Shown: positions 28,826 through 31,800 of the stretch, piece by piece
Numbering within the stretch: the stretch's first letter is position 1
How the letters are laid out: the number at the start of each line of letters is the position of its first letter
Origin: Eledone cirrhosa
Taxonomy: Eukaryota
Length of the DNA stretch: 64,000 bases
Direction: 5' to 3'
NCBI GenBank assembly: GCA_964016885.1
Contig: OZ024740.1
Span: forward strand, 212,226,001 to 212,290,000
Made by a program: the position numbers and the translations under genes
The notes under the pieces: generated by a model
The model's database searches: none
What the model saw: the letters and a program-made list of their open reading frames with translations, nothing else
What the model was told of the DNA's origin: nothing

Positions 28826-31800
28826 ATGTAAGTATGTATGTATACGTACATACATATATGTATACAGACGTACAGTAGCATGCATATATATATATATATA
28901 CATATATATACATATATATATATACACACATACATATATACATACATATACATACAGGTACACATACATATATGCACGCATCAGTTTAGCGGACGCCTTA
29001 TTATAACGCCGCTTTGTTCGTTTGTAAACAAACTGAACAGCCTGAATTTATGCCATACGGTGTTAAGGCAACCACGTCACCTTTTTGTTCAACACTGACA
29101 CAGGAACGATGTACTAGTTTCAAGCTTGTTAGCTATCATCAGCACCGTATACCCATCTGCCAGATAGTTGAACGTTCGAAAGTATATACTTTCCTTATGA
29201 AAATTAACGGCTGAGCAGCCTAATTTGCATATTGAGTGAGTTAAATCGGTCAGGCATACCGAAAACGATAAGTTCAAAAAAATGAAAACGAAATTTCATT
29301 TCTCACTCTTAGTATGGCACTTACTTAAATGTAAGTATGTATGTATACGTACATACATATATGTATACAGACGTACAGTAGCATGCATATATATATATAT
29401 ATACATATATATACATATATATATATATATATATATATATACATATATATATATACACACATACATATATACATACATATACATACAGGTACACATACAT
29501 ATATGCACGCATCAGTTTAGCGGACGCCTTATTATAACGCCGCTTTGTTCGTTTGTAAACAAACTGAACAGCCTGAATTTATGCCATACGGTGTTAAGGC
29601 AACCACGTCACCTTTTTGTTCAACACTGACACAGGAACGATGTACTAGTTTCAAGCTTGTTAGCTATCATCAGCACCGTATACCCATCTGCCAGATAGTT
29701 GAACGTTCGAAAGTATATACTTTCCTTATGAAAATTAACGGCTGAGCAGCCTAATTTGCATATTGAGTGAGTTAAATCGGTCAGGCATACCGAAAACGAT
29801 AAGTTCAAAAAAATGAAAACGAAATTTCATTTCTCACTCTTAGTATGGCACTTACTTAAATGTAAGTATGTATGTATACGTACATACATATATGTATACA
29901 GACGTACAGTAGCATGCATATATATATATATATACATATATATACATATATATATATATATATATATATATACATATATATATATACACACATACATATA
30001 TACATACATATACATACAGGTACACATACATATATGCACGCATCAGTTTAGCGGACGCCTTATTATAACGCCGCTTTGTTCGTTTGTAAACAAACTGAAC
30101 AGCCTGAATTTATGCCATACGGTGTTAAGGCAACCACGTCACCTTTTTGTTCAACACTGACACAGGAACGTTGTACTAGTTTCAAGCTTGTTAGCTATCA
30201 TCAGCACCGTATACCCATCTGCCAGATAGTTGAACGTTCGAAAGTATATACTTTCCTTATGAAAATTAACGGCTGAGCAGCCTAATTTGCATATTGAGTG
30301 AGTTAAAGTATATGTATGTATATATGTATGTGTGTATATATATATATGTATATATATATATATATATATATATATGTATATATATGTATATATATATATA
30401 TATGCATGCTACTGTACGTCTGTATACATATATGTATGTACGTATACATACATACTTACATTTAAGTAAGTGCCATACTAAGAGTGAGAAATGAAATTTC
30501 GTTTTCATTTTTTTGAACTTATCGTTTTCGGTATGCCTGACCGATTTAACTCACTCAACATGCAAATTAGGCTGCTCAGCCGTTAATTTTCATAAGGAAA
30601 GTATATACTTTCGAACGTTCAACTATCTGGCAGATGGGTATACGGTGCTGATGATAGCTAACAAGCTTGAAACTAGTACATCGTTCCTGTGTCAGTGTTG
30701 AACAAAAAGGTGACGTGGTTGCCTTAACACCGTATGGCATAAATTCAGGCTGTTCAGTTTGTTTACAAACGAACAAAGCGGCGTTATAATAAGGCGTCCG
30801 CTAAACTGATGCGTGCATATATGTATGTGTACCTGTATGTATATGTATGTATATATGTATGTGTGTATATATATATATGTATATATATATATATATATAT
30901 ATATATGTATATATATGTATATATATATATATATATGCATGCTACTGTACGTCTGTATACATATATGTATGTACGTATACATACATACTTACATTTAAGT
31001 AAGTGCCATACTAAGAGTGAGAAATGAAATTTCGTTTTCATTTTTTTTGAACTTATCGTTTTCGGTATGCCTGACCGATTTAACTCACTCAATATGCAAA
31101 TTAGGCTGCTCAGCCGTTAATTTTCATAAGGAAAGTATATACTTTCGAACGTTCAACTATCTGGCAGATGGGTATACGGTGCTGATGATAGCTAACAAGC
31201 TTGAAACTAGTACATCGTTCCTGTGTCAGTGTTGAACAAAAAGGTGACGTGGTTGCCTTAACACCGTATGGCATAAATTCAGGCTGTTCAGTTTGTTTAC
31301 AAACGAACAAAGCGGCGTTATAATAAGGCGTCCGCTAAACTGATGCGTGCATATATGTATGTGTACCTGTATGTATATGTATGTATATATGTATGTGTGT
31401 ATATATATATATGTATATATATATATATATATATATATATGTATATATATGTATATATATATATATATGCATGCTACTGTACGTCTGTATACATATATGT
31501 ATGTACGTATACATACATACTTACATTTAAGTAAGTGCCATACTAAGAGTGAGAAATGAAATTTCGTTTTCATTTTTTTGAACTTATCGTTTTCGGTATG
31601 CCTGACCGATTTAACTCACTCAATATGCAAATTAGGCTGCTCAGCCGTTAATTTTCATAAGGAAAGTATATACTTTCGAACGTTCAACTATCTGGCAGAT
31701 GGGTATACGGTGCTGATGATAGCTAACAAGCTTGAAACTAGTACATCGTTCCTGTGTCAGTGTTGAACAAAAAGGTGACGTGGTTGCCTTAACACCGTAT

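Follow-up and report, generated by a model that had tools for sequence, protein, structure and literature searches.

Introduction

Penelope-like elements (PLEs) carry the reverse transcriptases (RTs) that form the sister group of TERT and are its closest relatives. One such enzyme, from an anole, has been modelled as a dimer, and in vitro it starts reverse transcription at two internal sites that bound the 'tail' of the element, requiring the RNA 3' of both and showing no strand preference between them (PMC11167929). Hydra-clade PLEs are described as having RWK-like, DKT and CxCX5C motifs, a C-terminal GIY-YIG, a canonical hammerhead and (TA)n targets, and Naiads as having no canonical hammerheads (PMC8557442). 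A third point of comparison is telomerase RNA, described with a template, a template boundary and a triple-stranded pseudoknot enclosed by stem 1 (PMC5224487). Lastly, there are the non-LTR retrozymes of animals, which according to a review hold no conserved motif that would point to their mobiliser (PMC7761336).

Here we consider three families of tandem repeats, A, B and C, in a stretch of 64,000 nucleotides (the window) from the 3.0 Gb, (TA)n-rich genome of Eledone cirrhosa. Like the metazoan non-LTR retrozymes, they consist of non-coding tandem units of 310-530 nt with low GC and one type I hammerhead per unit (PMC7229834, PMC7761336, 10.64898/2026.07.22.740005), and as in the described cases they are dispersed, run to hundreds to thousands of copies and co-occur with PLEs. 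From genomic copies and modelled folds we propose that the fold of family C, common to A, B and two further families (E and F) and including a covarying kissing pair, binds a Penelope-type RT and positions two internal start sites, a reading to which we assign a probability of roughly 0.6.

Retrozyme arrays and their relatives

Each family forms an array of two head-to-head arms inserted in (TA)n. Family A lies at 16148-17839 (312-nt units) and family B at 27074-27928 (317-nt units), both with the domain described below. Family C, with units of 531 nt, has its left arm on the minus strand (28826-30307) and its right arm on the plus strand (30309-32649); the outer end of the left arm falls at the short (S) start site, and that of the right arm, 32649, at the long (L) start site. 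C is covered by contigs from runs X1 and X6 that have loose ends near the long site; X4 and X5 gave no such contig. The core, stems I and II and a minimal stem III of a type I hammerhead can be read in every A, B and C unit; in C (30648-30678, plus strand) the core is CUGAUGA...GAAAC-UA-GUA, stem III is minimal and palindromic, and cleavage is predicted after 30678. In B the core reads UUGAUAA (27408-27435), a natural U3-A8 double variant of the C3-G8 pair. The arrays hold no non-repeat open reading frame of 150 aa or more, and the repeat RNAs of A, B and C found no match in Rfam at gathering score. Among the scored candidates, the matches that represent dispersed copies number at least 44 for C, at least 271 for A and at least 234 for B. 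Judged by their sequence, A, B and C are non-LTR retrozymes. The family C arrays L017-L024, on contig C3, have several A-to-G differences from the window copy in common, possibly as scars of editing or as marks of a subfamily.

Searched by pattern and by DNA sequence, the genome yielded the relatives C1b, C2 and C3, families E and F, and an older form of B. The pattern for C2 and C3 gave 12,611 matches and that for E gave 567, with a control of 0 in both cases; a hammerhead pattern with V at position 7 gave 4,059 matches, which miss CUGAUGA cores, belong mostly to a 310-nt subfamily of A and are not a count of all families. Family C had been taken to be unrelated in sequence to A and B, and by BLAST it has no direct match to either. 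However, a chain of linking matches, C1 to E (E-value 9e-19), E to F (3e-5), F to A (2e-6) and A to B (6e-25), makes C a remote homologue of A and B.

A predicted fold with a loop-loop contact

The strands that the original prediction had picked out in the right arm of C all lie where it had placed them: GTATGGCA (30732-30739) and TGCCATAC (31004-31011), the two sides of helix P3; TCAGGC (30745-30750) and GCCTGA (31069-31074); and GAGTGAG (31015-31021) and CTCACTC (31084-31090), the two sides of helix P6. In the predicted ensemble of the monomer, P3 and P6 have pairing probabilities of 0.95 and 0.97, and in the covariation alignment A2 three of seven P3 pairs show double changes and all P6 cells (100%) are paired. 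Read along the plus strand from the hammerhead arm, the unit presents a small hairpin, P2 (30707-30725), the 5' strand of P3, the strand X, CAGGC (30746-30750), two hairpins, P4 (30751-30775) and P5 (30777-30802), an AU/UG tract of variable length (30813-30986), a further small hairpin (30987-31004) whose loop (30993-30998) holds the start site S, and the 3' strand of P3. P6 follows and encloses the start site L (31053-31057) and a hairpin, H, which had been overlooked (31062-31078, TCGGT/ACCGA, probability 0.93).

The loop of this hairpin is 7 nt long (AUGCCUG, 31067-31073) and contains GCCUG, so that the long-range contact with X would be a loop-loop, or kissing, pair. In the nested fold of C the two partners are left free, with unpaired probabilities of 0.84 for X and 0.95 for the complementary loop strand. 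The complementarity of TCAGGC and GCCTGA thus holds, though as 5 bp (30746-30750 with 31069-31073) rather than the 6 that had been suggested if the local hairpin forms, since A31074 is then taken by the TCGGT/ACCGA stem. Two other parts of the earlier picture fare less well. P3, which had been described as an enclosing helix, embraces one side of the kissing pair only, the 3' partner falling outside it; it is an extended hammerhead stem I that closes the whole core in the predicted fold. The AU/UG tract is not a free strand and is predicted to form a long hairpin, with a mean unpaired probability of only 0.12.

Directly 3' of P6, ATGCAAAT (31094-31101) is kept in C, E and F though its pairing partner varies, and about 35 nt past it stands TATATA (31136-31141), followed by the 5' arm of the hammerhead, at the same place in E and F. 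We take the first to be an octamer and the second a TATA box, which together would make a possible internal promoter. A single old copy, L362, is a further family that combines B-like and E/F-like motifs after P6.

How far is this layout shared? The order of helices is indeed the same in the predicted folds of A, B and C, as had been claimed, and also in E and F, though pairing is weaker for P3 of F (0.26) and P6 of B (0.41); both kissing strands are free in the predicted nested fold of C, A and B. Where the claim of a common topology fails is in the significance of A and B against shuffles. At a stringency of 8/7/6 bp, which corresponds to the original description and was defined after the fact, the layout occurs in 2 of 400 dinucleotide shuffles of C; at the looser 6/5/4 bp that is needed to admit A and B, 163-225 of 400 shuffles (41-56%) match, and a single sequence therefore cannot establish the topology of A and B. 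In single-sequence dinucleotide shuffles the fold is not significant for A, B or F, and two loose fold descriptors are uninformative for C, where the AU/UG tract itself matches them.

The 9-mer said to be common to B and C, TGCCTGACC, is present in B (27618), and its counterpart TGCCGGACC stands in A at 17252 and 17564, but the structural equivalence proposed for it does not follow. In A and old B, TGCC is stem and NGACC loop, whereas in C TGCCTG is loop and ACC stem; the 9-mer is thus stem plus loop in B and loop plus stem in C, shifted in register against the pairing, and not an equivalent element. Three loci with the 9-mer upstream of another hammerhead (L156, L158 and L162) are probably due to chance, the control giving 2, and L156 and L158 lack the layout.

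Covariation of the helices and the kissing pair

A stronger view of the fold comes from comparison between families. The core of P3 reads ATAGC/GCTAT in A, B and F, ACAGC/GCTGT in E, ATGGC/GCCAT in C1 and ACGGC/GCCGT in C1b, C2 and C3, and P6 occurs across the families as AGAGC/GCTCT, CAGAGC/GCTCTG, GAAGCT/AGCTTC, GGGCGAG/CTCGCTC and GAGTGAG/CTCACTC. The long-range pair varies as well, from GGUCU:GGACC (A), GGUC:GACC (B) and GGCUU:GAGCC (F) to GGCC:GGCC (E), CAGGC:GCCUG (C1) and CGGGC:GCCCG (C2). We counted these changes in two sequence-only MAFFT alignments of eight chosen real copies each. For A, B and F, 92% of cells are paired and six pairs carry double changes, two of them in the kissing pair; P6 was omitted from this count, MAFFT placing it at an offset between A/B and F. 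For C and E, 94.5% of cells are paired and six pairs carry double changes, one of them in the kissing pair. Slid controls gave 26-44% paired cells for A/B/F and 25-37% for C/E. The shuffle control ignores relatedness, and we therefore put the number of independent double changes in the kissing pair at about three. The larger sample of C loci goes the same way: most by far of the 53 segments from loci with CAGGC as X have a loop that ends in CCUG, and CCCG is the usual loop end in the 19 segments from loci with CGGG(C/A). The compensatory changes, seen in both helices P3 and P6, in hairpin H and between X and the loop, thus support a conserved fold with a long-range pair.

One could argue that the nested helices are real and the long-range pair a chance complementarity of short, GC-rich motifs. 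The pair has only 4-5 bp, and shuffled sequences often contain a match of 4 bp; the register is not the same in all groups, the pair extending 5' of the GG in C and 3' of it in A, B, E and F; in E it requires a one-base shift that was chosen after the fact, among old and noisy copies, and a search of the E2 and E3 variants for further double changes met similarly noisy old copies and at most a change from G-C to G-U. Young and abundant B, moreover, has lost two of the four stem pairs of hairpin H at no obvious cost. Nevertheless, double changes stand at unambiguously aligned columns, in two pairs between A/B and F and in one, from A-U to G-C, between C1 and C2/C3, and chance would also have to leave both strands free in the nested folds of C, A and B. 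We consider this account improbable. In a young B copy (L064:1503-1819), the mutated hairpin strand CCAACAACC is complementary at 8 of 9 positions to GGUAGUUGG in the arm of hammerhead stem I, a possible alternative fold.

Two fixed ends of the DNA copies

The outer ends of the DNA copies, mapped in the fetched loci with identical ends merged, gather at S and L. The two sites account for 25 and 20 of 48 ends in A, 19 and 20 of 44 in B, 16 and 20 of 41 in C1, and 14 and 10 of 35 in F; the map for C2 and C3 (22 ends) is noisier. In C the two clusters occupy unit positions 303-317 (S) and 364-375 (L), where copies end after 31056. S lies 2-15 nt 5' of the 3' strand of P3, and L lies on an unpaired strand inside P6 (unpaired probability 0.84-0.99 in C), roughly 2-13 nt before the kissing hairpin. 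L is found in E as well: in a scan that began 30 nt 5' of the 3' strand of P3 and stopped 25 nt beyond the hairpin start, 15 E ends adjoin a microsatellite, and every one of them is placed 2-13 nt ahead of the hairpin. The spacing between S and L is about 30 nt in A and B, 40 in F and 60 in C. Among 54 two-ended insertions both ends are canonical in 41, and 39 of these pair one S with one L end; the other 13 have a truncated or interrupted end and were left unscored. Targets are microsatellites, mostly (TA)n, though in F several junctions are with (CA)n or (CT)n, and the short junctions of C and all long junctions have only 2-4 nt in common with the flank. Whole units are copied many times, in multimers.

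Two fixed ends, one per arm, are the known Penelope 'tail' with internal initiation. Indeed, PLEs share with these retrozymes two internal starts downstream of the hammerhead, a tail on one end only, inverted arms, and AT-rich or (TA)n targets with little target homology (PMC11167929, PMC8557442); the retrozymes differ in being non-autonomous, in a tail of about 30-60 nt and in the strictness of one site per arm (39/41). The positions of the ends support a tie between the domain and the apparent start points of reverse transcription.

This tie need not mean that the fold acts in starting. It might serve the RNA's own life, in compaction, ligation of the circle, nuclease resistance or folding of the hammerhead, with the start sites set by local AU-rich single strands and motifs such as AAUUCUAAU rather than by the kissing pair. 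Retrozyme circles are described as highly self-paired (PMC7229834, PMC7761336), the start sites do lie in unpaired AU-rich strands, a AATTCTAAT-like motif is found at L in A, B, E and F, and young B has spread despite the loss of its hairpin stem. However, C has no AATTCTAAT motif there, each of the five families keeps L immediately 5' of the kissing hairpin, and the covariation is concentrated around the two start sites. We regard this explanation as rather unlikely. A conserved, covarying fold in copies that end at two fixed, adjoining sites makes the fold likely to be a handle for RT starting.

An alignment region for (TA)n ends?

The original prediction had gone further and assigned the (AU)n tract a role like that of the template or alignment region of telomerase RNA: a telomerase-like particle whose pseudoknotted core presents (AU)n to pair with (TA)n DNA ends, and which may add repeats. 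The ends of C speak against it, for only 1 of 41 falls within the AU/UG tract, which is moreover predicted to be double-stranded and is no start site (four ends were scored at its edge, of which one is a true in-tract end, one a locus edge and two are interruptions). Nor is a tract needed to join (TA)n: C, F, all L sites and the autonomous PLE discussed below start without one, and the ends of the long site and of that element join (TA)n through 2-4 nt of microhomology. The picture is more favourable in A and B only, where S overlaps a partly unpaired AU tract of 8-11 nt that could anneal to a (TA)n end; the closure of the core by extended stem I also recalls telomerase. Even in A, 14 of the 21 short junctions listed lie 5' of the base before the tract, where a start could be set purely by position or by annealing that tolerates a mismatch. 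The flanking DNA repeats whichever microsatellite is present locally, (CA)n and (CT)n among them. Copying passes all helices and takes in whole units time after time, so no helix acts as a template boundary, and none is otherwise evident. Taken together, we find a telomerase-like particle of this kind highly improbable.

The comparison with telomerase RNA (PMC5224487) is nonetheless instructive. Each is a structured RNA in which a pseudoknot-type pair lies close to where a TERT-related RT would engage DNA, and a helix closes the core, here hammerhead stem I in the predicted fold. Unlike telomerase RNA, the retrozymes have a kissing pair instead of a compact pseudoknot with base triples, none of which is evident here; they have no template boundary and no short template that is copied repeatedly, and their RNA copies itself into the genome. 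The likeness may be a loose one: like telomerase RNA, retrozyme RNA may act as a structured core by which an RT is placed, though it does not belong to the telomerase RNA family.

A candidate source of the enzyme

Which enzyme would use such a handle? The window contains a young, truncated, two-armed Hydra-type PLE (21346-28666, RT-EN frame 24805-26430 on the minus strand) with one long and one short end, and the B array (27074-27928) sits inside it. Genome-wide the element has many near-intact copies with open frames of about 758 aa from stop to stop, and a frame of 713 aa in L136 has RWR, DKT, CNCLNKETC and a C-terminal nuclease region, which by motifs only points to the Hydra clade; the PLE frames found no match in Pfam. 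The element too has two fixed ends, about 33 and 101 nt past its hammerhead, which resembles that of A (28 nt, 89%, E-value 2e-6). Of the retrozyme families only A matches, in its hammerhead, the one pLTR compared; outside the hammerhead BLAST finds no match, and the fold could not be mapped onto the pLTR of the element. A Naiad had been suggested as the partner, which is unlikely given that Naiads are described as having no canonical hammerheads (PMC8557442) and that an intact young PLE family with Hydra-clade motifs is present here. The Hydra-clade element is the likeliest source of the enzyme, as a candidate.

Further observations concern the PLEs themselves. One family of Hydra pLTRs (L136:1139-1290, L037, L214, L252) has, just 5' of the long end, a hairpin whose GC stem varies and whose loop ends in AACC, together with an invariant GUGGUUA, a conserved start-site element of a different kind. 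Another PLE is represented in the window by its 3' end (34600-35790), which has a GIY-YIG-like frame, a hammerhead core on the minus strand at 34639 and an inverted partner at 14867-15081. The pLTR of yet another PLE occurs twice in inverted orientation, at 15281-15697 and 33055-33640; its sequence is related to the 5' region of a second Hydra-like frame, in L159. Around 21-29 kb the two-armed insertions form a nested set. A marginal tRNA-like match at 541-598 (29.4 bits) is probably the head of a SINE.

Discussion

In the mechanism that we posit, the kissing pair would dock the P3 and P6 domains and thereby offer S and L to two RT active sites. A dimeric Hydra-type enzyme would bind the RNA, and its endonuclease would nick both strands of AT-rich microsatellite DNA; each DNA 3' end would then prime at one site, S or L, through 2-4 nt of microhomology. 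From a multimeric or circular RNA the RT would copy several units in a row, after which the arms would be joined head-to-head. Short annealing between the (TA)n end and the AU tract at S may contribute in A and B. Perhaps, then, retrozymes carry a dedicated RT-loading module, a two-domain RNA locked by a kissing loop, with two start sites for the two halves of a dimeric Penelope enzyme and one for each DNA strand, a proposal that we hold tentatively and place a little short of even odds. The absence of a strand preference in the anole enzyme in vitro (PMC11167929) counts against our preferred explanation, as does the difference in S-L spacing between the families.

Retrozymes and a two-site tail are already known; a conserved, covarying domain is what we did not find in the literature searched. 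The retrozymes described so far stand apart from the five families here, in which a covarying multi-helix domain, a predicted kissing pair and two fixed start sites occur together. The main text on the anole PLE describes only an AC-rich stem-loop and no conserved tertiary fold (PMC11167929). Our search returned no kissing loop or conserved fold for non-LTR retrozymes in the texts that it covered; the supplements (Fig. S2C of PMC11167929, the 2026 preprint), which could bear on novelty, lay outside its scope.

The domain bears on how PLE RTs choose an internal start, and on how retrozymes recruit them. At 150 nt, and with natural compensatory variants, it offers a set of ready-made mutants, whilst its fold can serve as a search descriptor for autonomous elements and for other animals. 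It is also a fair way to ask whether the closest relatives of TERT use structured RNA as telomerase does. If retrozymes do carry an RT-loading module, the sister group of telomerase would have in it a functional equivalent of the structured RNA core needed by TERT, and the module would be a portable signal for bidirectional target-primed insertion.
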